From assembly GCF_041886205.1 (NCBI RefSeq), contig NZ_CP169029.1: a stretch of 64,000 bases of DNA; one strand, 5' to 3'. Source of the DNA: Escherichia coli (GTDB lineage Bacteria > Pseudomonadota > Gammaproteobacteria > Enterobacterales > Enterobacteriaceae). Of this stretch, positions 1 through 41,663 are shown piece by piece (position 1 is the stretch's first letter; each line of letters starts with the position of its first letter). The notes below the pieces were generated by a model, which saw nothing but the letters and a program-made list of their open reading frames with translations, was not told where the DNA came from and did not search any database. The position numbers and the translations under genes are program-made.

Positions 1-3000
1 CCACCGTCAGGCCGCACGATGCCAGCCAGCGGCGGCTTTCCTCACTCACCCGGTCAGCCAGGATTTCACTTTCCAGCCGGTCGAGCATCTGCACCAGCAC
101 CGGCGGGAACACCACACTGCCACCGTCTTCGCCGCCGGACTGCTGAAGGGTATCCGCCAGGCTGCGGCGCTGCGTTTTCGCCTGCTCACCGGTGGCGGTT
201 TCAACCCTGATGAGTGGCGTGAAGCTCCCCGGCTGATAAATCGTCTGGATGCGGGTCCTGTCGTTCTGTATCGTGGTCAGCCGGTCGCCGTCCCAGCCGT
301 ACCAGGTCACTTGCGGTTTCCGTGACAGCGACATCCAGCCCGTCAGGTCCCGTTCACGCCGCCACACCCGTTTTGCCACCCTGCGGCCCAGCGGGTCGTA
401 AAGATAGCGACTTTCGACCAGCGGCTCTGCATATTGTGTCCGCGTGTAGTGCACCAGCCGGTGCTGACTGTCGTAATGGTACCGGTGGGTGCGCTCATCA
501 TCCGTGCGGATAACCCCTTCCGGGATGAGGTCGGTTTTCTCCGTCAGCCTGCCGTGACGGTCATACCGGTAAAGATAGTGCGCGTCACGGGCGATACGGT
601 TATCCGGCCACATGCTGAGGGTGCTGTCCGGGTGCAGCTCCGGGTCGGGCAGGCGGTTACCTGCCGGGTCTGTGGCATACGGGATGCGGATATCCAGATT
701 CGCTGCGGTGGTGTGAACGCTGGTCAGCCTGCCGGTGGTGCTGTAGCTGTAACTCCGGGTCTGGCGCGGGCTGCTGATGCGGATGAGTTCGCCGTTGTCG
801 TTCCAGGTGTAATCGCGGTCATACAGCAGGCTGTTCAGGTGCTGGCTCTGTAACTGCCCGGCAGGGGTGTAAGCGGTGGTGAGTTCATTAACGGCCGAAG
901 CTGCGCAGCGTTTCCCGGTGCAGGCGGTCGCGGGTGTACTCCACCAGCGGTGTGTCGCCGAGTTTCATGCCTGCCAGGTAACCGCTGCCGTAGGTCAGCC
1001 ATTCCACGGCGGGCAGGCTGTCCGGTATACAGCGGTTCGCCAGCCCCTGCGCGTTGTACGCATGTCTGGTCTCATGCTGCCAGAGCAGTGCTTCCGTCTG
1101 CGGGTGATGCACCGTCTGACGTTCACCGGTCAGGCGGCCTTTATCATCATACCCGTAGTGCACCGTCACCCGGTGCCCTTCGCTGATATGGCTGATGTCT
1201 GTCAGCCAGCCGCGTGTCGTCATACTGCCACCGCTCTGCCGGTTTCACCCTTCACGGTGCGGTGCGTGAGGCGGTCTGCTTCGTCATAGTGCCAGTGGGT
1301 GACCAGCCCCTCATCCTCACTGCTGGATGAGTTTGCCGGTCAGGTCGTGGTGATAACGCTGTGTGCGGCCGTCAAAGCCGGTTTCCTGTATCGAGCCGGT
1401 CAAGCACATCGTAACGGAAGGTGGTGTGGCTGCCGTTTTCACTGGTCAGGCGGATGACCCGTCCGGCAGCATCGTATTCCATACTGCGCGTCAAGCCCGC
1501 CCTGCGTGGTACAGACGGCCTTTCCCGCGCGCATCGTACTGTGTCCCGTTTCTGCTGCCGTCCGGGGCAATAACGGCGGTCAGGTCACCGGCGGCGTTGT
1601 ATTCATACCGCGTTTCATGGCCCTGCGTGTCTTTCACCGAGCAGTTAACTGTCCACGGCTGTCGTATGCGCGGTACTGGCTCATGCCCTTCCTCGCGGTG
1701 CACCGCCGTCATCTGACCGAAACGGTCATGGTCATAGCGGGTCGTGGTAACCGGAACAGTCAGTGAAGGTCAGCAACTGACCGTAACGGCTCCACGTCAT
1801 GGTTTTCCGGTACTGCCCGTCGCATCCGTCCGTTGTCGCAGGGAAGCTCACTGTGCGCGGATTATCATAACGGTAGCGGGTGATATCGCCGTCAGGGGCG
1901 AGTCTCCTGAATCAGACGTCCGTATTCATCATATTCCCGGCGCATTTCCAGCCCGTCCTGGCCCGGTAGCTGACGTTAACTGGTTGTGGTCGTTATAGTG
2001 AAACGCCGATGCCCTGCCATCCGGCGTGGTGATGCGCGTGATGAGCGCCGCGACACCACATCCGGGCTGTACTCTGTCTGTCCGGCCTGCGGCATCCGTC
2101 TGTGCCTTAAGCCTGCCCACCGCATCAAACTCGACTCTGCGTGACGCTGCCGTCCGCGTGTTCCTTTTTCACCACCCGCTTCAGCCCGGCTTCGCCCTGC
2201 GTGTGCAGCACTTCACGGCGGTTCAGGCTGTCGGTGATGGTGATGCGGTCCTTCTCATACTGATAGCGTGTAGCTCCAGAGCCTGCCGGGTTGAGCTGCT
2301 TCGTCACCCGCCCGGTCACTCGTCGTACCGGTAGCGGATTTCCGGCCGGCCCGCGTAACGGTGCGCCACCATCCGGCCCCGGTGTTGCATCATCGTAAGT
2401 GAAAGCTGCGCACCTGCGTTCCGCTGCGGTCATACACCGCCGCGCAGTTCGCCGCGCTGGCCGTCCAGCGTGTAGCGCGCCAGCGGCGCGGCAGGCTGAA
2501 TTCTCCGGGTATGCCGGGTCGTGCGTCAGCCACACCGCCGACAAGACGGATGCCGTTGTCCGGGCCGTATTCGGTGTACCCGGGCAGTGTGTCGAGGAAA
2601 AGCGGACGGTTCCGAGACCGGCGGGAAGATAAAGAGTGCGCGCTGCTCGGGCTTGTCCTGCCCGCTGCGCCTGCGTGGTCAGCACCAGCCGGAAGTGACG
2701 CCCGGCACCGTCCGTCACGCCGGTGATTTCGCCGCCGAATGTCACCCGCCGGCCTCGCGGTGGAACGTCAGCGTCCGCCCGAAGCGGTCCGCCAGCCCGG
2801 TCAGCACCCGGTACGGCGGCAGCGCGCGCAGGCAGCACCTCGTCCGCTTCCGGCACCCGCTCACGACCAGCCGAGCAGCCACCACGGCCCCTGCAGCGCT
2901 GTTCGTCGCCAGATAACGATGCGGACTTAAGCGGATATCTTCCGGCAGCGCCTGCCAGAGTGCGCCTAGCCGTGTGACCGTTCATCCAGCTCCGCCACGC

Positions 3001-3441
3001 CGCCGCGCACCAGCCACAGTGACTCGCTGCGGCTGTAGCCGTCCTCGCCGGGAAACAGCGTGCTCAAAGTGACAGGCTCCTGCCGCCGTTGTCAGCTGAG
3101 TATCAGTGCGTCATCGCGCAGCTGTAAGCGGATATCCGCAGGCGCTTTCAGCCGGGGCCGAGGCTCCCCACCGGCGCGGGCGTTCTGGTCCGGTAGCTGC
3201 TGTAGGTGCGGGAGAGGATGAACGGCAGCGGGCGCGGGCAGGGCGATGTCGGTCTCGCCGGGCAGGCACCTTCGCACCGAGCAGCGGATTGACCGGATGG
3301 CCGGACGTCACCCCGCCGGACACGCCGAACAGGCCACGCCGGTGGGCGCGCCGATGCGCACCCGGCTGCCGAACCCTCGGACAATGCCGCGGCCGCCTTG
3401 CGGGTCATGTCGCCCTGACGCGCCGCCGGTTTTCCGCTCAT
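1..3441 (-). pseudogene. Rhs-family YD-repeat protein, N-terminal and core part only; C-terminal toxin domain lies beyond the window start; reading frame broken many times
   Basis: Minus-strand ORF starting at 3441 begins MSGKPAARQGDMT (typical Rhs N-terminus); downstream fragments carry YD-repeat sequence (e.g. YGYDDKGRLTGE, RYEYNAAGDLTAV, ITTPDGR); fragments lie in different frames. Confidence 0.8.
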
Positions 3442-3479
3442 GAATCAATTCCTCTTTCTGCTTATTAATAATGGCTTGT

Positions 3480-5693
3480 CTGTTACTGCACCAGTACCGT
3501 TTTAACAGGTGCACCCGACCCTAGTACTGCTCGCATATCCGGCGTATCCGGGGGGTGAATCTTTCGGCATCAGGCGTCATCCGGTGCGGGATCGTCGAGG
3601 CTGCCACAGTTCCAGTTAATCAACTGGCGCAGTCACCGTTCACCTGCTCGACTCACCCTGCCAGAGTGAATGTGCGTGCCGTTGAGAAAGATTGCTGCCG
3701 TCCTTCGTCAGCACCAGCCTTGCCTCACCACAGCAGAGCTCCAGATGCCACAGGCGAGATAAACTCGCGGTCTGCCCGTGTGTCAGTCCTTCATTCGTCT
3801 TCTACCACCGGTGAAAGGCGGCGTGATTCCCCACATTGACGTCTGTAGCCCAGCCCGACCCTGAACCAGTGATCCGAAGCAGCCCTGCCTGTGAGGACTG
3901 CAACAGACGCCACCGAGGTGTGGTCGTAATGCCGCCTACCGTCGTCTGGTACGCCCACCGTCAGCGCACGAACGAGTCGCCACCGTTTCCACTCTGAACA
4001 GAACCCACGTTGATGATCTGGTTACCGCCCACCGTCTCCACACTGGTTCATCCCCCACTCGTCTGTATCTGATTAACGCCAATGTTCTGGATCTGGTTAT
4101 TGGTACCGGCGATCGCCTGGTTGTTGCCAATGGTCTCGGCATGGTTGTTTATCACATCCGTGGTGCGGTTATTCAGCACCTCAGGTGTTCATCTGTCTTC
4201 TGCGCGTGGATGTAGACCTGTTCTTTCCCTGTCGCATCGTCAAACTTCAGTTCATTAAACCCGCTGCCCGTATACGTTTTCGAGCGGATGGTCATCTGCG
4301 TCTTCGTTCCGGCAGGCTGCCGGGTGTGCGGTTTTCCTGGTGGTAGGTACGCCCCATAATGATCGGCTGGTCCGGATCGCCGTTGAGGAAGTCCACAATC
4401 ACCTCCTGACCCACACGCGGTATCGCCAGGTGGCCAAAACCGGTGCCTGCCCACGCCTGTGCCACACGGATCCAGCACGAACTGTCTTGGTCTGCCGGGT
4501 TATAACGGTCCCAGTTGAACTTCACCCGCACGCGACCATGTTCGTCGCAGAAGATTTCCTCGCCTGCCGGTCCTGTCACGACAGCGCTCTGCGGGCCGTC
4601 AACCAGCGGTTTCAGCAACGGCTGTGGTCGCCATGTTCTGTCTGCCGGGATCACCGCAAAATGGTTATCCAGCGCCGTCCCCGCTCCCTGCCGTCCTGGC
4701 ACCGCCTGTGGCTGTTCGCCGTGCAGTTCACTTGCCACCACCTGCCATTCCCGGTTCAGGTTCGCCTGCGGATGCCCCGTCAGCACAATTCGCCGTCCCG
4801 GCCATATCTCCGGCGAGCGGCTTGTTCCCCGCGCGGTTTCTGCGTTGTTGCGCCAGCCGTCCATCTGCCAGCGGGCAAAGTTCTGCCCGTGGGCACTCTC
4901 GAAACGTCCGGGGTAGTCATACACTTCATACTGCGTGCGCTGGTAGTCCTGGTGCTGGCCTTCCTGTTCAAAACGTCCGGCCCAGCCGGGTCGCTTAAAG
5001 GTGTAGTCTTTGTGTTCACCACGGAAGAAGGGCGGATTTGTGCGCTGTAGCGGAACTGGCTGATGCAGAGGGTGCTCACCTCGGTACGGGTGTTCGGATT
5101 CCAGGGATTTCAAAAGATTCGGGCAGATAACGCGACTGTGTCGCACAGCACCAGGCTCTGGTCGGTACTTTTGTAAGCATGCTCCTCATAAAAGAAGATG
5201 CCTTCCTCCGCCGCCATCCGGCACAGGAAATCGTAATCAGTCTCACCGTACTGGACACAAAACTCACGGGAAGGATGCGGCTCGCTGAACAGCGGACTCC
5301 ATTCGGTCACCCCGTTTTCCTGCAACATCGTGCCGAGGATGCTTTCGATGTCCTCGTTCTGGAAGATACGGAAGTTCTGGCGCAGACCGGCACGCCACAG
5401 CGGCGGGTGCACCTTCATGCTGTACAGCATCTGGTTTTTGTCGTTCTCCCCCAGTTCAAACCAGGTCACCACACCTTCACCCGGCGCTGTACGTCATCGC
5501 CCTGCCATACCGTCAGGTAGGCCATTTTGTCCAGCACCTGCGCAAATTCAAGGGAGAGAAACTGCTGGCTGACCAGAGAGAGATCGAGGGAAAAAAGCGA
5601 AGAGAGTGACTGGTTCAGATGAAAGGAAACCACCGCAAACGCATCCGGTGGCAGGCCGTCCACTTCCAGTGTGAAACGTAATCCGGTTGACAT
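3480..5693 (-). pseudogene. vgrG: VgrG spike protein (TssI), frameshifted; 3' end approximate
   Basis: Fragments at 5466-5693, 5110-5472, 4292-5146 and 4173-4478 (minus) read MSTGLRFTLEVDGLPPDAF..., ...GRTYHQENRTPGS..., MTIRSKTYTGSGFNELKFDDATGKEQVYIHAQK, matching VgrG gp27/gp5 modules; frames differ between fragments. Confidence 0.8.
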
Positions 5694-5850
5694 AGCAACC
5701 TCTGGGGTTAGGAAAAACAGACAGTTCGCTGTTAAAGCGGCTGTGACAGTACAGTGTTACGCTTGCGTTCAGGCACGCTACCGCCGAGTTTTCCGGCAGT
5801 CGCCATCTCCCTTGCTAGTACCCTAACTGACAACCTTTTTTTTATGGTGT

Positions 5851-5890
5851 AATACAAAAACAGCATCCGGCCTGATAGCCGGATGCTGTT
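5851..5890 (-). terminator. Rho-independent terminator immediately downstream of hcp, upstream of vgrG
   Basis: Inverted repeat cagcatccggc / gccggatgctg (5861-5888) with 6 nt loop, followed on the minus strand by a T-run (A-run 5851-5860 on plus). Confidence 0.55.
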
Positions 5891-5898
5891 GGCTTAAC

Positions 5899-6425
5899 TT
5901 ATGCTTCCAGCGGTGCGCGCCAGTCGTCGGCACCGGAGGTGCCAGATTTGACGTGTTCCCATTCAATTTTCGCGGTAGGCCAGTGAAACTTCGAGCAACT
6001 GGGTGAACTCGCGTTTCGCCGGGTCCTGGCAATGCGGCATATGCAGTTCTCATATCGCCAATCGTCGAATCAGTCAGGCGGGGAGCGAGATAGTGCTCCT
6101 GTTTGCCTTCCACAGAGGTACGCCACCAGTGAAGTTCAGCGGTTGGGCAGCATTTCGCCGGAGGCCAGTGCGTTGTACATCAGCGGAACCGCTTTGTTCA
6201 GCGCCACGGTAAAAATGAAAGGCTTGTGAGCGCACGCTGACCCGCAGGCTGACCGGACTGAGGATCGGTCCGCACAGATAACGTTATGCAGGAATTCCTG
6301 CACCAGCATCTCCGTCTTCGTGCCCCTGCACATAGATGTTGCCGACAGAATCAGCGGTAAATGCACCTGCAGTAATATTTCCCTGGGTCTGACCAGTGAT
6401 GGAAGATATAACACGGTGTTGGCAT
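5899..6425 (-). pseudogene. hcp: Hcp (TssD) tube protein, frameshifted
   Basis: Minus-strand translation from 6425 begins MPTPCY... and ends ...PLEA*; internal fragments ...EMLVQEFLHNV...HKPFIFTVALNKAVPLMYNALASGEML and VEGKQEHY...LTDSTIGDMRT match the Hcp family; length 527 nt is not a multiple of 3. Confidence 0.8.
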
Positions 6426-7134
6426 TTGTAAACTCCTTGTTAACGTGGTTAATTACTACTTACAATGACCTGCCGTTAATCCCAGACAGGCAGATGCAGC
6501 TCACTTCACGGAACCGCATCATTTTTCAGTATTTTTTACATACAAACCGAGCTAGAATTTACGGTTGTCGTAAAAACTATTTTTAAAATCATTACATAAC
6601 TCTCATTCAGCAAATAACTTAATAATATATATCTGGATAGCCATACCCAACTGTTCAAAGTCCGTATTGCCTCCATAAAATGGCCAACAGCGCGAACCAA
6701 CTGAAAATAAATATTGTATTTATCCTTTCTGAATTATCATTTTGATAATTTTTGAAGATATTCCTTAAAAATACCCACTTAATCAATCACAGTAAACACA
6801 TGTATAAATAAGCAATCATTAGATTAGCTCATGTTTAATGAAATTATTATATACTTCAATAAGTTACATAAAAAATCTATATTTAAATTATTGCCATAAT
6901 ACACCTGACGCGAATTGCACAGGTTCACACAATCTATTTAACGCTTGCAGAATACCCCTCTTTACCATCGATAAAAAGTCCTTTTCTTATTTATTTTGAA
7001 GCGTAAAATGCGGGGTGATGAAGGAGCTGGTGATTTTATTTTCACCGCCATTAGGGCGGCATTGCCGATATTTTTTTGCGGTACAAATATGCCGTGTTCA
7101 TGGCCTGTACGAGATAACATGACGGATTACTTTT
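6426..7134. promoter_or_regulatory. AT-rich divergent intergenic region between hcp-vgrG-rhs (minus) and tssB operon (plus); presumed promoters
   Basis: ~700 bp non-coding, visibly AT-rich compared with flanking genes; sits between divergently oriented T6SS genes; no specific promoter elements verified. Confidence 0.35.
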
Positions 7135-7646
7135 ATGAGCAAAAAATTTGAAGGCAGCGTCGCGCCTCGCGAGCGTATTAACATATCGTATGTCCCAAAA
7201 ACAGATGGCCAGACGGCTGAAGCGGAACTTCCGCTTAACATGCTCGTTGTCGGCGATACCGGAAATACGCAGGAAAACATCCCCACTGGATGAACGTCAG
7301 GCAGTTTCCGTTAACAAGCACAATTTCGGTGCAGTGATGGCTGAAGCAGCCATTGGCCTCAATTTTACTGTCCCCGCCACGCCTGAAGGGAAGCACAACA
7401 GACGATGAACTGAATGTGGCGCTGAATATCAAATCACTGGAAGCTGACTCTTTCACCAGATAGCGTGGCCCGGCAGGTTCCGGGAAGCGAGTAGTAATCG
7501 CTGGAACTGCGTGAAGCACTGACTGCACTGAAGGGGCTCGGCTGGGTAAACCTTCCGGCATTCCGTACCCAGCTCCAGGCATTGCTGGAAAATGAAGAGT
7601 CCCGCGAGCAGTTGCTCAAAGAAATCGGTCTGGTGAGCAATAAATA
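7135..7646 (+). pseudogene. tssB: TssB (VipA) small sheath subunit, frameshifted
   Basis: Translation from ATG 7135: MSKKFEGSVAPRERINISYVPKTDGQTAEAELPLNMLVVGDTGNTQENIP then stop; continues in another frame as LDERQAVSVNKHNFGAVMAEAAIGLNF; TssB-family N-terminal signature. Confidence 0.75.
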
Positions 7647-7958
7647 ACCACCACGATTCCATTAAACAGGGTTATCCAGGACATGACGGCACACAAAAAT
7701 ATCTCCGGGACATACCACCTCTCTGTTGCAGACATTCTGCAGGTGCTTTACCAGGTATGTTTCAGCCCGTCCGTTGAAATCAACCAGGACTGGTGTGGCT
7801 GCGCTGATTACAACACTGGATCGCCGTATCAGTGATCTATTGGATGAGATTATCCATTTTTGTGAGTTTCAGCAGAGCGCGTCGCACTGGCAGCGCGTAC
7901 TTCACTGATGGCGAAAGGCCGGTTCCAGAAACACAGCTAAAACAGAAGGATTTTCAGT

Positions 7959-9461
7959 ATGTCTTTACAGGAAGAGGAACTCTGTTCCCAGTCATGCCGG
8001 GCAGCCTGGAGCAGGCATCGTCGCTGCTTGATCAAATCATGGCACAGACCCGTATTCAGGCCCGGTTCGGAAGGTTATGACGTTGCCCGCCAGGGTGTGA
8101 CAGCCTTTATTGCCAGCATCCTGCAATCCACTGCATCTGCCGAACCGGTCAATAAACTGGCCGTGGACAGCATGATTGCAGATATTGATGAACGCATCAG
8201 CCGCCAGATGGATGTCATCATCCAGGGCGCGCCTGCCTTTCAGCAGGTCGAATCGTTCTGGCGCTCACTGAAAACCATGGTGGATCGCGTTGATTTCCGT
8301 GAAAACATCAAGGTCAACGTGCTTCATGTCACCAAAGCAGGGAACTTCTGGAAGACTTTGAGTTTGCGCCAGAAATTATTCAGTCCGGATTTGATCAAGC
8401 ACGTTTATTCGTCCGGATTCGGACAGTTTGGCGGTGAACCCATCGCTGCCGTGCTGGGCGCTTATGAGTTCAAAAATACCGCGCCTGACATGAGACTGTC
8501 GGCAAGACGCCAGTGCCGTGGGCGCAACGGCGCACGCACCGTTCCTGTCCTCCGTTTCCCCGGCGGAGTTTATGGGGCTGAACTCGTGGACCGAACTGCC
8601 TAATATCAAAGATCTTTATGCCATCTTTGAAGGTCCGGCCTACACCAAATGGCGCGCCCTGGCGTGACTCGGAAGATTCGCGCTGGATTCAGGGCTTACG
8701 GCACCCCGTTCTTCCTGCTTCGCCAGCCCTGGTCACCAGCAGATAACCCTGTTAAGAAGCTTTAACTATCACGAAGATGTCAGCCAGAACCACGAAGATT
8801 ATCTGTGGGGTAATACGGCCTGGATGCTGGCATGCAATATCGCAGACAGTTTTGCCGAATACCGCTGGTGTCCAAACATTATCGGCCCGCAAAGCGGCGG
8901 CGCGGTGAAAGATCTGCCGGTGCATCTGTTCGAAACGATGGGGCAGATTCAGGCCAAAATCCCAACCGAGGTGCTGGTCACCGATCGCCGCGAATTTGAA
9001 CTGGCTGAAGAGGGTTTTATCACCCTGACCATGCGTAAAGACTCTGATAATGCAGCCTTTTTCTCTGCAAACTCGGTACAAAAACCTGAAGCACTTTCCG
9101 GGAAAAGATGCAGAAACCAACTATAAGCTGGGTCTGCAGTCTCCCTGATCTCTTCATCATCAACCGGTTAGCGCACTACATCAAGGTGTTGCAGCGTGAA
9201 CATACTGGGGTCATGGAAAGAAAGGAGCGACTTAGAGAGGGCAGCTCAGACACCCTGGATCCGTCAGTATGTTGCCGACCAGGAAAACCCGCCGGACGGA
9301 CGTGCGCAGCCCGCAAACCTCTGCGCGCAGCCAGAGTTGAGGTTATGGATGTGGAAGGCGAACCCGGCTGGTACCAGGTTGCGCTAAGCGTGAGGCCTCA
9401 TTTTAAATTTATGGGGGCAAATTTTGAGCTTTCCCTGGTCGGCCGGTTAGACAGGGAGTAA
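7959..9461 (+). pseudogene. tssC: TssC (VipB) large sheath subunit, several frameshifts
   Basis: Fragments SLLDQIMAQTRIQ, EGYDVARQGVTAFIASIL, PVNKLAVDSMIADIDERISRQMDVIIQGAPAFQQVESFWRSLK and C-terminal ARVEVMDVEGEPGWYQVALSVRPHFKFMGANFELSLVGRLDRE match TssC; pieces are in three frames. Confidence 0.8.
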
Positions 9462-9466
9462 CACAC

Positions 9467-9893
9467 CATGAGAGTACCGGATCGGGAAAAGAACCACAGG
9501 TTCTCTTTTTTGAGCGTATGGAAGCCTCTTCGGCCAGAAACCGGGCAGGGAGGCAGTATTCATTCGCTCAGGCAATCCATTCGCCAGAACCTGACGAAAC
9601 ATTCTGAGTACCCGGTCCGGTAGTTGCCGGGGTGCGCCTGAGCTGGGCATTGATGAACCGGAAGGGGCTGAAAACTTCCGCGAATCCATGAGTCGGGCCA
9701 TCGAGCAATGTATAGAACGCTATGAACCCCGGATCTCACACGCTGAAGTGCAGGCAGTGGTTTCATCCGCCTCCAGCCCGCTGGATACGGCTGCTTCATA
9801 TTACAGCCTGGGTGACATTTCAGTCTGAAACGCATGAGGTGCTTGAATTTGATATGGCACCGAATGCAGCCAGCATTACCGGGTGGACTGACA
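9467..9893 (+). pseudogene. tssE: TssE baseplate (gp25-like) protein, frameshifted; assignment from position and size
   Basis: ~140-codon gene slot between tssC and tssF starting ATG 9467 (MRVPDREKNHRFSFLSVWKPL...); frame is interrupted; identity based mainly on synteny. Confidence 0.45.
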
Positions 9894-9894
9894 A

Positions 9895-11701
9895 ATGGAA
9901 TTTGAAGAACGCTATTTCCGGGAAGAACTCGATTACCTGCGCCAGCTGAGCAAGCTGCTCGGCAATGGATCTATCTGGCCCGCTTCCTGGCCGAAAAAGA
10001 TGCGGATCCGGATATCCAGAACGCCTGCTGGAAGGGGTGGGGCGTCTTTCTTAACCGGCAATCTCCGCCAGAAAATTGAGGATGAATTCCCAGAACTGAC
10101 GCACGGGCTCAATCAAAGATGCTATGGCCTGATCACCTGCGTCCGGTTCCTGGCAATGACCCTTGATCTATATACGCCGGATATGGATAAGTCTTCTGTA
10201 CCGGTGTTAATCCCCTCGTAGACTCAGCAGTTGAACATACCAACGCCGGGGAAATCAGAGTTGATGAAGTGCTGCCCTCTGATGCTAAAAAGGAGGAGCC
10301 GCCTCCCCTGTACCTTCAGCCCTCTGCCGGGATATCAGGCTGCTGGCCCGTTCGCCTGGAGCAGATTGACTGCAGTACGACCCGTAATGGTGTTATCATA
10401 CATCACCCTTTCGGTTCGCACCGGAAACGGACTTCCGCACGCTGGATCTGAACAAACTTCGCTTCTGCCGCTCGGCAATGACGACAACTATACCCGTGAC
10501 CAGCTTTATTTATGGTTCTGCGAATACTTGCAGGGTGCCGACCTGACTGTGGGTGAACAGCATATTCGCCTGCCTGAGTTTATGCTAAAAGCTGTCGGTT
10601 TTGAGCCGCAGGACGCCATGCTGGCCCTGGCCTGAAAAACGTCCACAGCGGCTACCGGATCCTTCAGGAGTATTTCCGTTACCCCGATGCGTTTCTCTTT
10701 TTTGATCTTTGTGGTTGTCCGGCTTTGCCTGACGGATTGCAGGCGGAATTCTTTACCCTGCAACTGCGTTTTTCGCGCCCTTTGCCCGTGGACATCCGGC
10801 TGCGCCGCGATTCCCTGCGCCTGTATCGCGCACCTGCCATTAATTTATTTATCCACCATGCAGAAGCCATCACGCTGGACAAACCGGCGGGCAAGACTAT
10901 CCGCTGGTTCCCAGCCGCCATTACCCACAACATTACGATGTATTTTCCGTTAACAGTGTGGTGAGCCAGGTCCAGGATATGTTCAGGAAAAAAGATCTGG
11001 GGCGTCCTGTTTCGACGCAGGCCGCGCGCCAGTGGCCAGCCTTTGAAAGTTTCAGCCATCAGATGGAATACAGCCGGAAGCGGGAAGTGGTGTACTGGCA
11101 ATCACCGGACCAAAACATCCCTGTTCCATCGCGGCTTTGATCATACCCTTGCCTTTATACATGCTGATGGCAGTTATCCGTCAGACGAATCTTCTCGCTC
11201 GAGTAAATGAAGTGGTTTCGGTATCGCTGACCTGTACCAACCGTGAGCTTCCGTCACAAATACGTTCCGGGCGATATCACCGGCACAACCGGTAAAAATG
11301 CGGCTGTTGCTTCATTTCGCAACATTACCCGCCCGACGCAACCACTCTGGCCGGTCATTGACTGGCAGCCTGCACTGGTCCCTGCTCTCCGCCATGAACC
11401 TGAATTATCTGTCATTACTGGATACGGACGCGCTGAAGCAGCTCATCGCCAGTCTTTGATCGCCACGCAATCCATCATCCGCAGACGGCACGGCTGTCAC
11501 AACAAAAGCTGGATGCCATTGAGCGTCTGGAGACCCGCCCCGTTGATCGCCTGTTTACGGGTATTCCCGTCCGGGGACTTGGCCTCCACGCTGTATCTGC
11601 ACCCGGAGCCGTTTGTCTGTGAAGGGAAATGTATCTGCTCGGTACGGTGCTTTCGCATTTTCTGTCGCTGTACGCCAGCGTTAACTCATTCCACATGCTG
11701 A
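9895..11701 (+). pseudogene. tssF: TssF baseplate protein, several frameshifts
   Basis: N-terminus MEFEERYFREELDYLRQL is the conserved TssF start; ~600-codon span fits TssF; ORF pieces at 9895-10221, 10231-10635, 10725-10964, 11243-11701 in different frames. Confidence 0.7.
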
Positions 11702-11729
11702 CCGTTGTGAACACAGAAAGCCAGGAGAC

Positions 11730-12817
11730 ATGGAAATGGACGGAAAGAATCGGGCAGCATCCTCTTATCTGAGTCCGGGAAATCCCCCGGCAGATAAAGA
11801 GCAGAATGATCCGCTGGCACAGGTTTTCCATAATGCCTGCTCTTACAATTTTTTTGCGATGGCGGGCTCGTTGCACCGCCTGGCAAAGGGTGAAAGGGGA
11901 CGCCAGAATTATCCCTGCGTGACGATCCGGCACAGGAAACCCTGCGTTTCAGCGCCGATGCCAGCCTTGCCTTCCCGTGCAGTGATATCAGTGCACTGAA
12001 ACGGGATACGTCAGGGGCATTCAGGATGACCACCACCTTTATGGGGTTACAGGGGAGCCAGTCGCCTCTCCCCGGTTATTACCTCGATCACCTGGCCTGG
12101 AAAGCGGTACATGAACAAAGTCCGGTAGGTGATTTTCTGGATATGTTCAGCCACCGCCTGACCCAGTTTGTCTGGCATATCTGGCGTAAGTACCGCTATC
12201 ACATCAGTTTTCGTAACGGCGGTGTGGATGCGTTCTCGCAGCGCATGTACTCCCTTGTCGGGCTGGGCCACCGCCAGCTTCGCGATAAGCTGGCGATTAA
12301 TCACAGCAAAATGCTGGCGTATTCCGGGATCCTGGCAAATCCGGGATGATCCCCGGAAATAATCTGTGGCCTGGTGTCCCACTGCTTTGATTTGTCAGAA
12401 GTGACGCTGCAAAACTGGCAACGTCGCAAGGTGGATATTGAACCGGATCAGCAAAATAGTCTGGGGAGCTATTCTCTTAAAAATGGCGAAAAACTGGCGG
12501 GAAGATCGGTACTGGGCAACTTTGTTCTGGGTACACGAGTGCCCGATCTCAGCGGAAAATTCCAGCTCAGTATTACCAGCCTGACCCGAAAACAGTTCCT
12601 CTCTTTCTGCCGTCTGGCGAAAACTTCCTGCCACTGACGATGTTCGTGTCCTTCATCCTGCGCGATCAGCTTGCCTGGGACTTACATCTGGGGCTGGCGC
12701 CGGAGCAGGTGGGCGCAATGCGCCTGGGCGATAACAAAAGTGCGCTGCTGGGCTGGACCAGCTTCCTCGGCACACCGGAAGAACGACCCTCAGTCACCAT
12801 CAGGGTACGGTCGTAAA
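11730..12817 (+). pseudogene. tssG: TssG baseplate protein, frameshifted
   Basis: Follows tssF; N-terminal fragment contains LAQVFHNACSYNFF (TssG-like YNFFQ motif region); ~360-codon slot; pieces at 11730-11999, 12026-12349, 12374-12637 in different frames. Confidence 0.55.
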
Positions 12818-12819
12818 TT

Positions 12820-14121
12820 ATGATAATCACGGAGCAGAATATGCCGGAAGAGAAACTACAGACGCTTTCATTGCAGGTCATTAACGGCAGTGAGCTGGAA
12901 AGCGGACGGGCGGCGCGCTGTCTGTTCACACAGCAGGGAAATGTCGGCCATGGCCCCGAATGCCACTGGTCGGTACAGGATCGTCAGCAGAGCATTCCGG
13001 CCCAGGCTTTTACCGTTATCCTGCACGATGGCACATTTTGTCTGCGCCCGCAGACGGCACAACTGTGGCTGAATCAGGCAAAAGTCACAGCAACATCAGA
13101 CCTAATACAGTTGCGCCAGGGCGATGAGATCCAGATCGGACGGCTGATGGTGAGGGTTCATCTGAACCGGGGAGATATTCCCCATTACGATGAGGAAATG
13201 GCCACTCCCGAAACCATCGTTACCAATCGCGATATGCTCACGGATACCCTGCTATCAACGGAGGGTACGCCACACTATCCGGGAATGACTCACCGGCACC
13301 AACTTGCAGACACCGTGGTAAACGGTTTTTCTGCCGATCCACTCCAGGCACTTCAGTCCGAAAGCCTGATTACCACGGGCGATCCGCTTTCAGGCATTGC
13401 GGCTGTCCGGCCATCGGCACCGCTGTCCGATCCGGCAAGTAATGGGGGGATCAATACTCCGTTTATGGATCTGCCGCCCATTTATGCCAGCCCCGGCGAT
13501 CGTAATGACGACGTCTCTGCGGCAGAAATGGCGCAACGCCACCTTGCGGTCACCCCCTTACTGCGCGGTCTTGGCGGCTCGCTTACCATGAGCAATTCCG
13601 ACGATGCGGATGATTTTCTGGAGGAGGCCGGACGAACGTTACAGGCCGCAATAAAAGGTCTGCTCGATTTGCAGCAGCAGCGTAACAGCCTCTCAGACAA
13701 ACATTTGCGCCCGCTGGAAGATAACCCGCTGCGCCTGAACATGGATTACGCCACCGCGCTCGACGTAATGTTTGCCGAAGGTAAAAGCCCGGTACATCTG
13801 GCGGCTCCCGCCGCCGTCAGTGAAAGCCTGCGCAATGTCCGCCACCACGAAGAAGCTAACCGGGCAGCGATTGTGGAGTCGCTTCGTGTCCTGCTGGATG
13901 CTTTCTCACCACAAAATCTGCTGCGCCGCTTTGTGCAGTACCGCCGCAGCCATGAACTGCGCCAGCCGCTGGATGATGCCGGAGCATGGCAAATGTACAG
14001 CCATTATTACGAAGAACTGGCCTCCGATCGCCAGCAGGGGTTTGAGATGCTGTTTAACGAGGTCTACGCCCAGGTCTATGACCGGGTGCTTCGTGAAAAA
14101 CAGCGGGAGCCGGAAGCATGA
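12820..14121 (+). CDS. tagH: T6SS-associated FHA-domain-like protein (TagH-like), 433 aa, intact
   Basis: Single long ORF; N-terminal region LSLQVINGSELESGRAARCLFTQQGNVGHGPECHWSVQD...TVILHDGTFCL resembles the FHA fold pattern of TagH/Fha proteins; embedded in T6SS operon; stop overlaps tssJ start (ATGA). Confidence 0.5.
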   Translation: MIITEQNMPEEKLQTLSLQVINGSELESGRAARCLFTQQGNVGHGPECHWSVQDRQQSIPAQAFTVILHDGTFCLRPQTAQLWLNQAKVTATSDLIQLRQGDEIQIGRLMVRVHLNRGDIPHYDEEMATPETIVTNRDMLTDTLLSTEGTPHYPGMTHRHQLADTVVNGFSADPLQALQSESLITTGDPLSGIAAVRPSAPLSDPASNGGINTPFMDLPPIYASPGDRNDDVSAAEMAQRHLAVTPLLRGLGGSLTMSNSDDADDFLEEAGRTLQAAIKGLLDLQQQRNSLSDKHLRPLEDNPLRLNMDYATALDVMFAEGKSPVHLAAPAAVSESLRNVRHHEEANRAAIVESLRVLLDAFSPQNLLRRFVQYRRSHELRQPLDDAGAWQMYSHYYEELASDRQQGFEMLFNEVYAQVYDRVLREKQREPEA

Positions 14122-14642
14122 ACAGGAAGGCGTTTCTGGCCTGCGTGCTGATGTGCGTCATATTAACCGGCTGCGAAACGGCGAAAAAAATCAGTGAGGT
14201 GATCAAAAACCCGGATATCCAGGTCGGGAGCCTGAAGGAGCAACCTTCGGAAATAACCGTCACCCTGCTGACCGAACCGGACACGCATACCAATGCGGAA
14301 GGTGAATCAGCCGCCGTGGATGTGCAACTGGTGTACCTGACTGACGACTCAAAATTGCTGGCAGCCGACTATGACCAGATAGCCAGTACGCCGCTACCGG
14401 ATGTGCTGGGTAAAAACTATATCGACCACCAGGATTTCAACCTGTTGCCGGACACCATCAAAACCCTGCCGCCGGTAAAGCTGGATGAGAAAACGCAGTT
14501 TATTGGTGTCGTGGCCGATTTCTCCGATGACCAGGCCACTGAATGGGAACAAATCGAGACGGTGGAAGGAACCGGCCACCATTACCGCCTGCTGGTGCAT
14601 GTACGTCAAAGCAGCATCGAAATGAAAAAAGAGGATGAATAA
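14118..14642 (+). CDS. tssJ: TssJ outer-membrane lipoprotein, 174 aa, intact
   Basis: Signal peptide with lipobox (MNRKAFLACVLMCVILTGC); size and position before tssK typical of TssJ. Confidence 0.7.
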   Translation: MNRKAFLACVLMCVILTGCETAKKISEVIKNPDIQVGSLKEQPSEITVTLLTEPDTHTNAEGESAAVDVQLVYLTDDSKLLAADYDQIASTPLPDVLGKNYIDHQDFNLLPDTIKTLPPVKLDEKTQFIGVVADFSDDQATEWEQIETVEGTGHHYRLLVHVRQSSIEMKKEDE

Positions 14643-14644
14643 TT

Positions 14645-15977
14645 ATGGCAACCACCCGCAACAAGGTGATGTGGCAGGAAGGGATGCTGATGCGCCCACA
14701 CCATTTCCAGCAACAGCAGCGTTACAACGACTACCTGGATAACCAGCGTTTCCGGGCCATGAATGATTTATCCTGGGGATTTACCGAACTCACCCTCAAC
14801 AATGAACTGCTGGCGCAGGGTAAGATCATGATTGACAGCGCGTCAGGCACACTGCCCGACGGCACCGTCTTTTCTATCCCCGACCAGGACGCACTGCCCG
14901 ATCCGCTGCACCCGCAAAATTTTCCGGACGAAAGAAGCCGCAATATCTACCTCGCTCTGCCGGTCGCCAGTGATGTGAGAAATGAAATCAGCGACGGACG
15001 GCGAATCGGGCGTTACCGGCTGAATTATGCCGATGTCCGGGATTTGCATTCAGAAGAAGGTGACGCGCGAACATTGACGCTGGGTCAACTGACGCCGCGC
15101 ATTATGAGCGGTGCAGAAGATATGAGCGCCTATATTACGCTCCCGCTTTGCCGTATCAGCGATCGCCATGCCGATGGCTCCCTGACGTTGGATGACGATT
15201 TTATCCCCTCCTGCCAGAATATTCAGGTCAGTAAGAAACTGCGTGTTTATCTCAAAGAGGTACAGGGGGCCATTGGCGGACGGGCAAGCGATCTGGCAAA
15301 CCGTATTGGCTCTCCGGCGCAGAGCGGCATCGCGGATGTGGCGGAATTTATGATGTTGCAGTTACTTAACCGTAACCAGACCCGGTTTACCCATCGCGCC
15401 CGCCGATCCCAGCTCCACCCGGAAGATTTCTACCTTGATCTTGCTGGGTTGCTGGGTGAACTGATGACCTTTACCGAGCCGTCGCGCCTGCCCTGCCCGC
15501 TTGATGTGTATGATCATCATGATCTGACCAAAACATTTAAAACACTGTTACCGGAAGTCAAACGGGCGCTACATACCGTACTGTCGCCAAGAGCGGTCAA
15601 TCTGCCGCTGCATCTGCGTGACGGTATCTGGCAGGCCGATATCCATGACACAGAACTGCTGCAATCTGCCACCTTTGTGCTGGCCGTGGCGGCAAACGTG
15701 CCGGTCGATCAGATCCAGCGTCAGTTTATCCAGCAGTCGAAAATTTCCTCGCCGGAAAAAATCCGCAATATGGTCAGTGTGCAGATCCCCGGTATTCCAT
15801 TGCGTGCCACTTATGGCGGCTCCCCGCCAGCTTCCTTATCATTCCGGGTTCAGCTATTTCGAACTCGACAAGAGCGGACAGGCCTGGACAGAAATGGCTG
15901 CCGCCGGGGCCGTTGCACTGCATGTATCCGGCAGTTTCCCGGATCTGAACATGCAACTGTGGGCGATAAGAGGGTAA
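14645..15977 (+). pseudogene. tssK: TssK baseplate protein, one apparent frameshift near the 3' end (~15.8 kb)
   Basis: N-terminus MATTRNKVMWQEGMLMRPHHFQQQQRYNDYLDNQRF... is TssK-like; C-terminal TssK sequence (FELDKSGQAWTEMAAAGAVALHVSGSFPDLNMQLWAIRG) is in the frame of ORF 15618-15977, not the frame of the long ORF. Confidence 0.8.
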
Positions 15978-15981
15978 GACG

Positions 15982-16742
15982 ATGGATGAGGGGTCACTGT
16001 CTCTGCCACCATTTACCGGATACGACGAAAAAAGCCAGCGCAACTACCATCTCGCGCTTCGTGGCAACAGCCTGAATCCGATGATCGACGCGGCCACGCC
16101 GCTACTCGGTATGGTAATGCGCCTTTCAACCATGAACAGCCAGACGATGCCGGAGCATCTTTTTGCTCAGGTGGTGACGGATGTTCAGGCCGTGGAGCAA
16201 CTGCTTCAGGAGCAGGGCTACGAACCGGGCGTGATTATCTCGTTTCGCTACATCCCCTGCACGTTTATTGATGAAGCTGGCGCTCGGTAACGGCTGGTCA
16301 AACAAGAACGAGTGGATCAAGCAGTCATTGCTGGTCCATTTCCACAACGAAGCCTGGGGTGGAGAGAAAGTTTTCATCCTGCTGGAGCGCCTGATCCGTG
16401 AACCCAAACGTTACCAGGATCTGCTGGAATTTCTCTGGATCTGTTTTTCTCTGGGATTTCGCGGGCGCTACAAAGTGGCAGCACAGGATCAGGGGGAATT
16501 TGAGCAGATCTACCGCCGTCTGTACCACGTTCTGCATAAACTGCGCGGCGATGCCCCTTTCCCGCTGTTACACCAGGACAAAAACCCAGGGCGGGCGTTA
16601 TCAGCTCATCAGTCGCCTGACTGTTAAACATATTTTTTGTGGTGGCGTTGTCGTGCTGGCGTTGTTTTACCTGTTCTATCTGTTGCGGCTGGACAGCCAG
16701 ACGCAGGACATCCTGCACCAGCTAAACAAATTACTTCGATAA
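15982..16742 (+). pseudogene. tssL: TssL (DotU-like) membrane protein, frameshifted
   Basis: N-terminal DotU-like sequence (NPMIDAATPLLGMVMRL...), C-terminal hydrophobic segment (VVVLALFYLFYLL) in a different frame; three ORF pieces. Confidence 0.7.
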
Positions 16743-16750
16743 GGACGTTT

Positions 16751-19521
16751 ATGATCCAGATTGATCTTCCCACGCTGGTAAAACGGCTGAACCTGTTCTC
16801 CCGCCAGGCGCTGGAGATGGCCGCCTCTGAATGTATGAGTCAGCAGGCAGCGGAAATTACCGTCAGCCATGTGCTCATTCAGATGCTCACCATGCCACGC
16901 AGTGACCTGCGGGTTATTACCCCGCCAGGGCGATATTGGCATGGAAGAAGTTGCGCCAGGCGCTGACGGTAGAGAACTACACGACCGCCCGTTCTGCGGA
17001 CAGCTACCCGGCGTTTTCCCCGATGCTGGTTGAGTGGCTGAAAGAGGGCTGGCTGCTGGCGTCGGCTGAGATGCAGCACAGCGAACTGCGCGGCGGCGTG
17101 TTGCTGCTGGCCCTGCTGCATTCGCCGCTGCGTTATATACCGCCTGCTGCCGCCCGGCTGACCGGCATGAACCGTGACCGTCTGCAAAGGACTTTGTGCA
17201 ATGGACACAGGAGTCGGCGGAATCAGTCGTGCCGGATGCAGACGGTAAAGGCGCAGGCACACATGACGGACGCCTCTGACACCCTGCTTGCCCGCTATGC
17301 CAAAAACATGACCGCAGACGCCCGTAACGGCAGGCTTGACCCGGTACTGTGCCGCGACCACGAAATCGACCTGATGATCGACATTCTCTGCCGCCGCCGT
17401 AAAAACAACCCGGTGGTGGTGGGCGAAGCGGGCGTGGGCAAAAGCGCACTGATTGAAGGGCTGGCGCTGCGCATCGTGGCAGGCCAGGTGCCGGACAAGC
17501 TGAAAAACACCGATATCATGACCCTGACCTGGGCGCATTGCAGGCCGGGGCGTCGGTGAAGGGTGAATTCGAAAAACGTTTCAAAGGGCTGATGGCGGAG
17601 GTCATTTCCTCCCCGGTGCCGGTCATTCTGTTTATCGACGAAGCACATACCCTGATTGGCGCGGGCAACCAGCAGGGCGGGCTGGATATCTCCAACCTGC
17701 TCAAACCGGCGCTGGCGCGCGGCGAGCTGAAAACCATCGCCGCCACCACCTGGAGCGGTACAAAAAATACTTCGAAAAAGATGCCGCCCTGTCGCGCCGC
17801 TTCCAGTTGGTGAAGGTCAGCGAACCCAACGCTGCCGAAGCCACCATTATTCTGCGCGGTCTGTCGGCGGTCTATGAACAGTCTCACGGCGTGCTGATTG
17901 ATGATGACGCCTTGCAGGCCGCTGCGACATTAAGCGAGCGTTATCTCTCCGGGCGTCAGTTACCGGACAAAGCGATTGATGTGCTGGATACCGCCTGCGC
18001 CCGTGTGGCCATCAACCTGTCGTCGCCGCCGAAGCAAATCTCGGCGCTGACCACTCTGAGCCACCAGCAGGAGGCGGGAAATTCGCCAGCTTGAGCGCGA
18101 GCTTCGCATCGGACTGCGTACCGACACATCACGGATGACCGAGGTGCTGGTGCAGTATGATGAAACGCTGACGGCGCTGGATGAACTGGAAGCGGCCTGG
18201 CACCAGCAGCAGACGCTGGTCCGGGAGATTATTGCGCTGCGCCAGCAGTTACTGGGCGTGGCAGAGGACGATGCGGCGCCGTTGCCGGACCGCAGATACC
18301 GTGGAGGATACGCAGCCAGAGTCAGAGTCAGAACAGGATAATACCGAGTGCCGTACCGGCTGGATGAGGCCGACAGAGAACAGCCGGAAGAGACCGCTGA
18401 AACAGTTTCCCCGGTACAACGTCTGGCGCCATCTCACTGCCGAACTGGACGCCCTGCATAACGACCGGTTGCTGGTTTCCCCGCACGTCGATAAAAAACA
18501 GATTGCGGCGGTGATTGCCGAATGGACCGGCGTGCCGCTTAACCGCCTGTCGCAGAATGAAATGTCGGTCATCACCGACCTGCCAAAATGGCTCGGCGAC
18601 ACCATCAAGGGCCAGGACCTGGCGATTGCCAGCCTGCACAAACACCTGCTGACCGCACGCGCCGACCTGCGCCGTCCGGGACGCCCGCTGGGCGCGTTCC
18701 TGCTGGCTGGCCCCAGCGGCGTGGGTAAAACTGAAACCGTCCTGCAACTGGCAGAGCTGCTCTACGGCGGTCGCCAGTACCTGACCACCATCAATATGTC
18801 CGAGTTCCAGGAGAAACATACCGTCTCGCGACTGATTGGTTCGCCTCCGGGCTACGTTGGCTACGGTGAAGGCGGCGTACTGACCGAAGCGATTCGCCAG
18901 AAACCCTACTCGGTAGTACTGCTCGATGAAGTGGAAAAAGCGCACCCGGATGTGCTCAACCTGTTCTACCAGGCGTTCGATAAGGGCGAAATGGCAGACG
19001 GTGAAGGCCGCCTGATTGACTGCAAAAATATCGTCTTCTTCCTGACGTCCAACCTCGGCTACCAGGTAATAGTCGAGCATGCCGATGACCCGGAAACCAT
19101 GCAGGAAGTACTGTATCCAGTTGTGCTGGCCGACTTCTTCAAACCTGCCCTGCTGGCGCGTATGGAAGTGGTGCCGTACCTGCCGCTGTCGAAAGAGACG
19201 CTCGCCACCATCATTGCCGGGAAACTGGCCCGCCTGGATAACGTGCTGCGCAGCCGCTTTGGCGCGGAGGTGATTATAGAACCGGAAGTGACGGACGAAA
19301 TCATGAGCCGCGTCACCCGCGCGGAAAACGGCGCGAGGATGCTGGAATCGGTCATCGACGGCAAGATGCCGCCGCTGCTCTCCCTGCTGCTGTTGCAGAA
19401 AATGGCGGCGAATACGGCGGTTGCCCGGATTCGGTTGTCGGCAGTGGACGGCGCATTTACGGCAGACGTGGAAGATGCTCAGAACGACGAGTCCGTCACA
19501 AAGGATGAAACGGTTTTATGA
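16751..19521 (+). pseudogene. clpV: ClpV (TssH) AAA+ ATPase, several frameshifts
   Basis: Two AAA+ Walker A motifs (GEAGVGKSA in fragment 16936-17559; GPSGVGKTE in fragment 18181-19521); ~920-codon span split over at least five ORF pieces in different frames. Confidence 0.85.
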
Positions 19522-29816: not shown

Positions 29817-29893
29817 TGGCGGAACGGACGGGACTCGAACCCGCGACCCCCTGCGTGACAGGCAGGTATTCTAACCGACTGAACTACCGCTCC
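29817..29893 (-). tRNA. aspV: tRNA-Asp (GUC)
   Basis: 77 nt; reverse complement reads GGAGCGGTAGTTCAGTCGGTTAGAATACCTGCCTGTCACGCAGGGGGTCGCGGGTTCGAGTCCCGTCCGTTCCGCCA. Confidence 0.97.
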
Positions 29894-38040: not shown

Positions 38041-38117
38041 TGGCGGAACGGACGGGACTCGAACCCGCGACCCCCTGCGTGACAGGCAGGTATTCTAACC
38101 GACTGAACTACCGCTCC
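38041..38117 (-). tRNA. aspU: tRNA-Asp (GUC)
   Basis: 77 nt, identical in sequence to the aspV copy at 29817-29893; located just distal to 5S rRNA. Confidence 0.97.
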
Positions 38118-38169
38118 ACCGAATTCTTTTACAACCACCGGTTTTATGACCGGCTTAATGCTTAATTTG

Positions 38170-38289
38170 ATGCCTGGCAGTTCCCTACTCTCGCATGGGG
38201 AGACCCCACACTACCATCGGCGCTACGGCGTTTCACTTCTGAGTTCGGCATGGGGTCAGGTGGGACCACCGCGCTACGGCCGCCAGGCA
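38170..38289 (-). rRNA. rrfH: 5S ribosomal RNA
   Basis: Reverse complement matches E. coli 5S rRNA (TGCCTGGCGGCCGTAGCGCGGTGGTCCCACCTGACCCCATGCCGAACTCAG...GGAACTGCCAGGCAT). Confidence 0.97.
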
Positions 38290-38371
38290 AATTCTTTTTT
38301 ATCAGACCGCTTCTGCGTTCTGATTTAATCTGTATCAGGCTGAAAATCTTCTCTCATCCGCCAAAACACCT

Positions 38372-41285
<2,914 letters not shown>

Positions 41286-41586: not shown

Positions 41587-41663
<77 letters not shown>

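Follow-up and report, generated by a model that had tools for sequence, protein, structure and literature searches.

Frameshifts in a vgrG-linked rhs gene of Escherichia coli are most likely part of a non-biological error tract in its T6SS-1 island

We analysed a 64,000-nucleotide stretch of the Escherichia coli contig NZ_CP169029.1 (the window), whose first 3441 nucleotides hold, on the minus strand, the first four fifths of a known PAAR/DUF6531-YD-repeat Rhs effector gene of clade I in an hcp-vgrG-rhs setting. This rhs is the last gene of the module, which closes the T6SS-1 island inserted at tRNA-Asp (aspV); it is probably intact underneath and overlaid by a consensus or polishing artefact, a reading to which we assign a probability of about 0.85. 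Its frameshifts are most likely non-biological, and would belong to a 29-kb error tract that is private to this sequence, biased towards insertions, independent of sequence context and limited to the island. The artefact was inferred from the sequence pattern. Rhs effector genes of this kind are already known, and biologically nothing here is new. The features of the region are as follows.

1 to 3441, minus strand: rhs gene, 5' 80% (ORF start, tblastn to K-12 RhsC, Pfam, NCBIfam)
2 to 886, minus strand: clean rhs core of pure rhsB/rhsC type (295 codons, one frame)
888 to 3441, minus strand: noisy part of rhs, reading as a mixture of alleles of the rhsB/C type and alleles of the vgrG-linked type (stops in every frame)
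3442 to 3519, minus strand: vgrG-rhs spacer of 78 nt with a ribosome-binding site (side-by-side upstream sequences)
3520 to 5693, minus strand: vgrG, the T6SS spike, frameshifted as given (five tblastn pieces in three frames)
5899 to 6425, minus strand: hcp, the T6SS tube, with 8 inserted bases (tblastn, per-gene table)
7135 to 29486, no strand assigned: rest of the T6SS-1 island (per-kb profile, tblastn pieces, per-gene table, synteny with E. coli O103:H2 12009)
29817 to 29893, minus strand: tRNA-Asp (aspV), where both the island and the noise end on the right (ARAGORN)

In PAAR-Rhs effectors, the N-terminus binds the spike and a shell of YD repeats encloses the toxin at the C-terminus. The PAAR-like N-terminus and the DUF6531 region dock the Rhs protein on the VgrG spike, and the YD-repeat core surrounds the variable C-terminal toxin, which is cleaved off where the core ends, at PxxxxDPxGL. 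When the T6SS sheath contracts, the spike is driven into neighbouring bacteria together with its cargo, and a small immunity gene downstream of rhs protects siblings.

An ORF at 3148..3441 on the minus strand opens with MSGKPAARQGDMT, in agreement with the start at 3441 proposed by an earlier, sequence-only reading of this DNA. Alignment of K-12 RhsC by tblastn spans the window from 3441 down to 2; as given, the sequence does not offer the uninterrupted frame of an RHS core protein, since about 56 indel events leave five pieces in three reading frames. We judged these breaks to be artefactual. The indel-corrected translation alone matched RHS_core (NF041261), scoring 2365.8 bits, above the NCBI cut-off of 2000, over profile positions 1-1140 of 1261. 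The corrected translation also matched DUF6531 (E = 3.5e-18) and, in 10 stretches, Pfam RHS_repeat (PF05593, E = 4.8e-72), a family that was likewise detected in the untouched frame 2-886 (E = 2.5e-9); the YD_repeat model TIGR01643 was matched in the rhs translation as well. The PAAR-like N-terminus is seen as a literal KPAARQGD, with K-P-A-A-R at residues 4-8, and gave no match to the Pfam PAAR_motif model at E ≤ 0.001. The homology is well above chance, with matches to this stretch in about 3,900 E. coli genomes.

Positions 1-3441 are the equivalent of RhsC residues 1-1126, and the window edge cuts the gene before the core-end motif. The earlier view that the window contains only the N-terminus and YD-repeat core, with the toxin end absent, was therefore correct, the window stopping at residue 1126 of the 1397 in RhsC. 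The core-end motif of K-12 RhsC, PISNIDPLGL, occupies residues 1238-1247, and by analogy would be expected about 335-365 nt to the left of position 1. It is a reasonable inference from homologues that the toxin tip and the immunity gene also lie to the left of position 1, which would place the informative part of this rhs outside the window.

The rhs gene follows hcp and vgrG immediately and in the same orientation, and a T6SS cluster adjoins the three genes. The hcp-vgrG-rhs order is common in E. coli, so the description of this arrangement as the usual one was upheld. Compared with the VgrG of O103:H2, vgrG carries 41 inserted and 9 deleted bases; the corrected gene has 0 stops and its product contains the Pfam domains Phage_GPD, Phage_base_V and Gp5_trimer_C. 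The remainder of the island (7135-29486) comprises tssB, tssC, tssE, tssF, tssG, tagH, tssJ, tssK, dotU, tssH, vasI, tssA, tssM, vasL, hcp2 and three small genes, most of which are broken by the same noise as rhs. At least 80% of window positions 1-6500 could be aligned in 2,618 genomes. In reference genomes, the left flank of the aspV island comprises ISAs1, yafV, ivy and fadE.

The gene had also been described as heavily frameshifted. The breaks are there, but they are not peculiar to rhs, which is the end portion of 29 kb of insertion-type noise with a technical and not an evolutionary signature. Between 888 and about 29,150 we counted 206 small insertion events and 30 deletion events (p = 2e-33), in a tract that extends to tRNA-Asp and takes in rhs, vgrG, hcp and almost all of the T6SS-1 genes. 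The small indels of the window were shared by none of the complete E. coli genomes in our comparison set (n = 5,426). The best alignments in this set reached 84.9% identity over 1-6500 and 96.9% over 6500-12800. The flank at 29811-64000 was 99.909% identical to that of strain wlxctx60, with 29 mismatches and 2 gap bases, the clean alignment starting at 29811.

Noise was dense up to about 11.9 kb, sparse at 12-28 kb and denser again at 28-29.2 kb; its level was about 4% for 6-12 kb, fell to 0.3% for 12-28 kb and was 2% for 28-29 kb. This unevenness counts against an artefact. A decay of sequence quality towards a contig end at position 1, suggested by the profile against O103:H2, was rejected, as 1-886 is clean when compared with the right reference type. 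One of six ORFs that were looked up was present in the protein collection: the frameshift-derived ORF 7959-8603, a product of tssC, corresponds to WP_374028418.1 / XGC72294.1, a singleton from one E. coli contig.

Genuine decay would read the same observations as the death of the T6SS-1 island, its hcp, vgrG and rhs among the casualties, with the 3' 886 nt of the rhs core refreshed later by gene conversion from another rhs copy. Confinement of the noise between aspV and the rhs core speaks for such a history, as island-specific decay could also produce limits at these biological landmarks. The substitutions in hcp-tssF are spread evenly over the codon positions (26/23/26) with more non-synonymous than synonymous changes, and the low-noise stretch at 12-28 kb shows the same non-synonymous excess along with a transition bias of 24:7 (Ts/Tv 3.4). 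Two private nonsense changes were found, in tssG at 12347 and in vasL at 25437. Together, the transition bias, the non-synonymous excess and the nonsense changes resemble relaxed selection. Long-read miscalls can also be transition-biased.

The indel spectrum, on the other hand, argues against decay. The ratio of insertion to deletion events was 6.9:1, compared with 0.76-0.94 in real bacterial pseudogenes, where about half of the insertions form direct repeats (PMC6054270). Tandem duplications accounted for only 3 of the 37 multi-base insertions, and a length that is a multiple of three for 8 of the 206 insertions. Single-base insertions lacked the same base next to them in 66% of cases (56% expected) and hence show no preference for homopolymers; errors of the homopolymer type (454, Ion Torrent, nanopore) were rejected as a source on these grounds. 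Indel events were about as numerous as substitutions, whereas two intact natural T6SS-1 clusters differed by 369 substitutions and only one indel, of 24 bp. Natural decay should give deletions at least as often as insertions, insertions that are mostly duplications and more substitutions than indels, and none of this was observed. All events are private among the 5,426 genomes, while the adjoining 34 kb are 99.9% identical to a relative. The 0 stops in 1126 corrected rhs codons and their third-position bias speak against decay as well, and we regard it as very unlikely. A published PacBio error profile does not settle the proportions of insertions and deletions (PMC5964698), and for that reason we claim no sequencing platform.

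A sharp transition inside rhs separates the clean left part from the noisy right part. Window positions 2-886 encode a sequence with 98.3% amino acid identity to RhsC residues 832-1126 and zero indels; at the nucleotide level, 1-886 is 99.3-99.4% identical to rhsB/rhsC of B1 strains (886 versus 886 bases), and 83 of the 90 diagnostic sites in 2-886 are of rhsC type. Compared with rhsC, the gene has 51 insertion and 5 deletion events, the leftmost insertion being at 888; in 888-3441, about 51 small insertions and 3-5 deletions create the stops. Alleles of the other type thin out at about 974, which is the same place as the end of the insertions. When the bases found only in the window were deleted, 1126 open codons with 0 stops were obtained, 93.8% identical to K-12 RhsC, with substitutions distributed 42/30/103 over codon positions 1/2/3. 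The rhs gene beneath the noise is thus probably intact; the exact sequence of 888-3441 is untrustworthy.

The abrupt change at 888-980, from a blended and noisy sequence to a clean one of pure rhsB/C type, might alternatively mark a structural mis-join at which the assembly passed, through the conserved core, from the vgrG-linked rhs to a different rhsB/C-type copy, so that everything left of about 900, including the tip, would belong to another locus. A close relative of this rhs was not found behind the T6SS-1 vgrG in any of the 5,426 genomes, where the vgrG-rhs junction was matched at 83.7% at best. The median number of rhs core copies per genome is 5-7. Natural recombination between rhs cores would, however, give the same clean left part. 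We hold a mis-join to be possible though unlikely, and it is compatible with a consensus or polishing artefact and not exclusive of it. Clade I rhs loci are known to share tips (PMC2935791). We rejected the idea that the sequence re-enters, at the left boundary, the Rhs gene which wlxctx60, the closest core relative, has at aspV; there is no nucleotide similarity, and wlxctx60 carries a different T6SS remnant at that place.

A further signature was provided by allele doublets, in which an inserted base places two alleles side by side. In rhs, 29 of the 41 single-base insertions set the allele of the other Rhs type beside the rhsC-type allele (9.8 ± 2.7 expected), a pattern that is also visible by eye in the alignment, and in vgrG 14 of 27 were doublets (1.4 expected). 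For either gene, 0 of 2000 randomisations reached the observed value. Only the doublets were counted here; the interleaving of rhsC-type and other-type alleles was set aside as proof of a blend, since it would also be seen in a natural lineage of intermediate type. We know of no mutational process that, at a site where paralogues differ, writes the two alleles next to each other, and this too weighs against decay.

Genomes contain, apart from the multiple rhs cores, a median of 2 vgrG-like places. Under an artefact of consensus or polishing, reads from multi-copy rhs and vgrG would form a mixed pile-up, and the paralogue or other-type allele would then be written beside the resident one. In hcp-tssF, a comparison with JNE23, the sole alternative haplotype tested, gave 2 doublets in 65 and no enrichment; the artefact reading thus needs two error components, which counts against it. 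In appearance, the errors of the single-copy T6SS genes are those of long reads at low depth that have been garbled. A second T6SS-1 haplotype was rejected as the source of noise in these genes, as JNE23 alleles are not enriched and hcp-tssF resembles garbled single reads.

In the vgrG doublets, an allele of the O103 type stands with one of the JNE23 type, two variants that different strains have at one and the same locus, as would be expected if a second E. coli strain had contaminated the sample and yielded a mixed consensus. Such a strain would differ in core genes as well, which the few differences in the flank at 29811-64000 do not indicate, and vgrG and rhs paralogues within one genome explain the doublets equally well; we consider contamination very improbable. 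It is scarcely credible that the roughly 200 small insertions, which look untemplated, are real; some novel process would then have struck the aspV T6SS-1 genes, vgrG and rhs and spared the adjoining core genome, and in the multi-copy genes it would have set paralogue alleles next to the resident ones, for instance by aberrant repair or by conversion between rhs and vgrG copies.

A reader or an annotation pipeline would call the T6SS-1 of this strain dead and its rhs decayed, and the tract thus calls for a quality warning. At least one spurious protein from it, the tssC frameshift product WP_374028418.1, is already public. The ratio of insertions to deletions, their context, allele doublets and the reopening of frames offer a way to separate assembly noise from true pseudogenes without reads.

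We compared the region with known systems. The window rhs shares with K-12 RhsC/RhsB (b0700; NF041261) the N-terminal MSGKPAARQGDMT, DUF6531 and the YD repeats. K-12 rhsC follows ybfA, whereas the window rhs follows vgrG; in its first codons after the start (TRK...) and its spacer, it resembles vgrG-linked rhs loci, unlike K-12 rhsC, and the spacer is homologous to the former and not to the region upstream of the latter. Over the 5' 1 kb, identity to the rhs genes of the 5,426 genomes reaches no more than 89%, a value that is partly due to noise. The structurally characterised RhsA of Pseudomonas protegens with VgrG1 (PMC8765631) has the same general build and, by analogy, presumably the same delivery route. 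In contrast to that system, the window has no Eag/DUF1795 chaperone gene between vgrG and rhs, which are separated by only 78 nt.

Close counterparts of the island end are, for example, E. coli O103:H2 12009 (ECO103_RS01205-RS01220) and JNE23-011, which have the same gene order, orientation and tRNA-Asp boundary as the window. Identity to islands of this type is 99.5% in the T6SS genes at 12.8-20 kb, and the vgrG-rhs spacer is homologous. At the same position, these strains carry an rhs of another core type, about 77-79% identical to that of the window. In both strains the genes are unbroken; a toxin tip and, downstream of it, a small ORF are annotated (ydcD, dsORF-e4), and ISAs1 copies come next.

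The rhs open reading frame started at 3441 on the minus strand, beginning MSGKPAARQGDMT, and a tblastn search with K-12 RhsC (1397 aa) covered the window from 3441 down to 2 in five pieces lying in three frames, of which the last (886-2) ran in one clean frame and matched RhsC residues 832-1126 at 98.3% identity. The T6SS-1 island containing rhs had the following layout.

Features of the T6SS-1 island in the window
3520-5693, minus strand (same orientation as rhs): vgrG, directly upstream of rhs
5899-6425, minus strand (same orientation as rhs): hcp, upstream of rhs
7135-29486, divergent from hcp-vgrG-rhs: complete T6SS-1 gene set, from tssB to a 786-nt hypothetical gene
29817-29893: tRNA-Asp, end of the island
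within 888-29150: genes split over frames, namely vgrG, hcp, tssB, C, E, F, G, K, dotU, tssH, A, M, vasL, hcp2 and ykfM

Window 1-6500 aligned over at least 80% in 2,618 of 5,426 complete E. coli genomes, with annotation as Hcp, VgrG and RHS element core protein, and the hcp-vgrG-rhs arrangement is thus common in E. coli. The sequence-only reading of an rhs frame running from 3441 just downstream of vgrG was therefore confirmed. Its view that the window holds the N-terminal and YD-repeat core alone was also correct, as position 1 is equivalent to residue 1126 of RhsC; the match to the NCBIfam RHS_core profile spanned positions 1-1140 of 1261. The core-end motif PISNIDPLGL occupies residues 1238-1247 in K-12 RhsC, and the motif lies at 1257-1266 in the vgrG-linked Rhs of O103:H2. 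Given these positions, the motif, the toxin tip and a possible immunity gene would be expected outside the window, at ~335 nt or more to the left of position 1. G+C fell sharply to 0.30 at 6501-7000, in the divergent hcp/tssB intergenic region, and this AT-rich stretch is presumably the promoter and regulatory region of the cluster.

The gene had also been described as heavily frameshifted. Indels were indeed present in rhs, but they were not specific to it. In a single collinear alignment of window 1-38026 to E. coli O103:H2 12009, indels ran from rhs to ~29,150, with none beyond, and nearly all T6SS genes were broken across frames, tagH, tssJ and vasI alone being wholly indel-free. The frameshifts are island-wide and no property of rhs itself. 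Noise density was uneven, at ~4% for 6-12 kb, ~0.3% for 12-28 kb and ~2% for 28-29.2 kb, and it peaked around the vgrG 3' end and the rhs 5' end, for which the closest genome matches reached 85.5-89% identity. The leftmost insertion lay at 888. Decay of quality towards a contig end at position 1 was rejected, since window 1-886 was free of indels against rhsC-type references. Window 29811-64000 was 99.909% identical to wlxctx60, the closest core-genome relative (29 mismatches and 2 gap bases in 34.2 kb), and this clean alignment began 6 nt from tRNA-Asp; for 30-54 kb, the best match among 5,426 RefSeq genomes was 99.9%.

A complete rRNA operon at 38041-43273 on the minus strand (16S, tRNA-Ile, tRNA-Ala, 23S, 5S, then a second tRNA-Asp at 38041-38117) was noise-free despite being a multi-copy repeat. 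Rfam matches were StyR-44 (41293-41401) and naRNA4 (50930-51006). At the tRNA-Asp that ends the island (aspV, 29817-29893), wlxctx60 (99.9% core relative; NZ_AP045833.1 826000-833000) carried another, degraded T6SS remnant with tssA, tssG and pieces of tssF, tssE and tagJ, after which come a DcrB-like gene and a truncated Rhs with DUF6531. This Rhs showed no nucleotide similarity to the rhs of the window. Close relatives therefore have alternative islands at aspV.

Across the island there were 206 insertion versus 30 deletion events (262 versus 45 bases; p = 2e-33), whereas the insertion:deletion ratio in real bacterial pseudogenes is 0.76-0.94 and around half of the insertions there create direct repeats (PMC6054270). 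Just 3 of the 37 longer insertions copied adjacent sequence, 66% of the 169 single-base insertions had no same base adjoining (56% expected if random), and 8 of 206 insertions had a length that was a multiple of three. Indel events were about as many as substitutions; between two intact T6SS-1 clusters, 10.9 kb held 369 substitutions and one 24-bp in-frame indel.

Single-base insertions were enriched for an adjoining transition partner (55% versus 43%, p = 0.002), and the same base was depleted. In rhs, 29 of 41 inserted bases were the allele of vgrG-linked Rhs types (O103, JNE23, O178) at an adjacent site differing from rhsC, a count reached in 0 of 2000 randomisations (9.8 +/- 2.7 expected by random position). 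At one such doublet, the alignment reads AAGGT-CCTT in rhsC, AAGGT-GCTG in the other types and AAGGTGCCTG in the window. Likewise, 14 of 27 vgrG insertions were the JNE23 vgrG allele beside the O103 allele (1.4 expected; 0 of 2000 randomisations). We know of no mutational process that puts the two alleles at a paralogue difference next to each other. Genomes carry a median of 5-7 rhs places and 2 vgrG-like places, and the doublet signal was missing in single-copy hcp-tssF (2 of 65). Differences in hcp-tssF looked like locally garbled stretches, with substitutions even over codon positions (26/23/26). Doublets do arise when reads from different rhs or vgrG copies pile up together and a consensus or polishing step is run on the mixture, and a low-depth long-read consensus would produce the garbled stretches and the evenly spread substitutions.

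We corrected rhs under the guidance of K-12 rhsC by deleting window-only bases and filling the few deletions. This gave 1126 open codons with no stops, 93.8% identical to RhsC, with substitutions of 42/30/103 at codon positions 1/2/3. Some 56 real frameshifts in a gene would be expected to be accompanied by many neutral substitutions and some in-frame stops. The corrected product contained DUF6531 and 10 RHS_repeat stretches and scored above the RHS_core equivalog cut-off, and the underlying rhs looks intact. Corrected VgrG (714 aa, no stops) contained Phage_GPD, Phage_base_V and Gp5_trimer_C. The vgrG 3' end (3480-4350) was the stretch least like any of the 5,426 genomes (best 85.5%, 30 extra bases in 869). 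Corrected VgrG shared 91.6% identity with the VgrG of O103:H2, and its substitutions favoured third codon positions; a truly different vgrG allele may thus underlie the noise there.

The changes in the tract were found in no other genome among the 5,426 complete E. coli genomes, where best full-length identity was 84.9% for 1-6500, 96.9% for 6500-12800 and 99.5% for 12800-20000. Two nonsense substitutions in low-noise parts of the island, tssG 12347 C>T (CGA>TGA) and vasL 25437 T>G (TAT>TAG), were in none of the >1,300 and >2,100 genomes, respectively, otherwise at least 99% identical there, and may be either genuine or further errors. Real decay of the island would fit these two changes, the coincidence of the tract edges with biological landmarks, the transition bias in low-noise stretches (24:7) and the excess of non-synonymous over synonymous changes. 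These points carry minor weight and are outweighed by the indel spectrum, by the fact that every event is private, by the allele doublets and by the reopened frames, which makes decay very unlikely. Taken together, the apparent degeneration is best explained, as far as sequence can tell, as an assembly or polishing artefact. The noisy tract is already in the public record itself: the 214-aa frameshift product of tssC (7959-8603, plus strand) is WP_374028418.1 / XGC72294.1, a one-member cluster whose sole source is an E. coli contig of 4,855,826 bp, annotated as 'type VI secretion system contractile sheath domain-containing protein' and probably a spurious entry.

Within rhs, other-type alleles thinned out at ~974 and insertions ended at 888, leaving pure rhsB/C type to the left. 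Reliable sequence may simply resume at ~888-974, or the assembly path may switch there into another rhs copy. Natural recombination may also have joined two copies at this site; clade I loci are known to exchange cores and tips (PMC2935791). Hence, assigning the toxin tip just left of the window to the vgrG-linked rhs carries some risk.

The main use of these results is as a warning that pseudogene calls across window 888-29,200 are not credible without reads. The rhs locus holds nothing new in kind. By its sequence, it belongs to the clade I Rhs family of E. coli and sits in a standard T6SS-1 hcp-vgrG-rhs module, with the membership features found inside the window except for an uninterrupted frame, which is broken as given. 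Members of this family dock on VgrG through PAAR/DUF6531, their YD shell surrounds a toxin that is released by autoproteolysis, and an immunity gene lies downstream (PMC8765631, PMC2935791); the Rhs of the window would presumably be delivered likewise. The spacer between vgrG and rhs (78 nt) and the codons just past the shared start had homologues at vgrG-linked rhs loci in other strains but none in the upstream region of K-12 rhsC.
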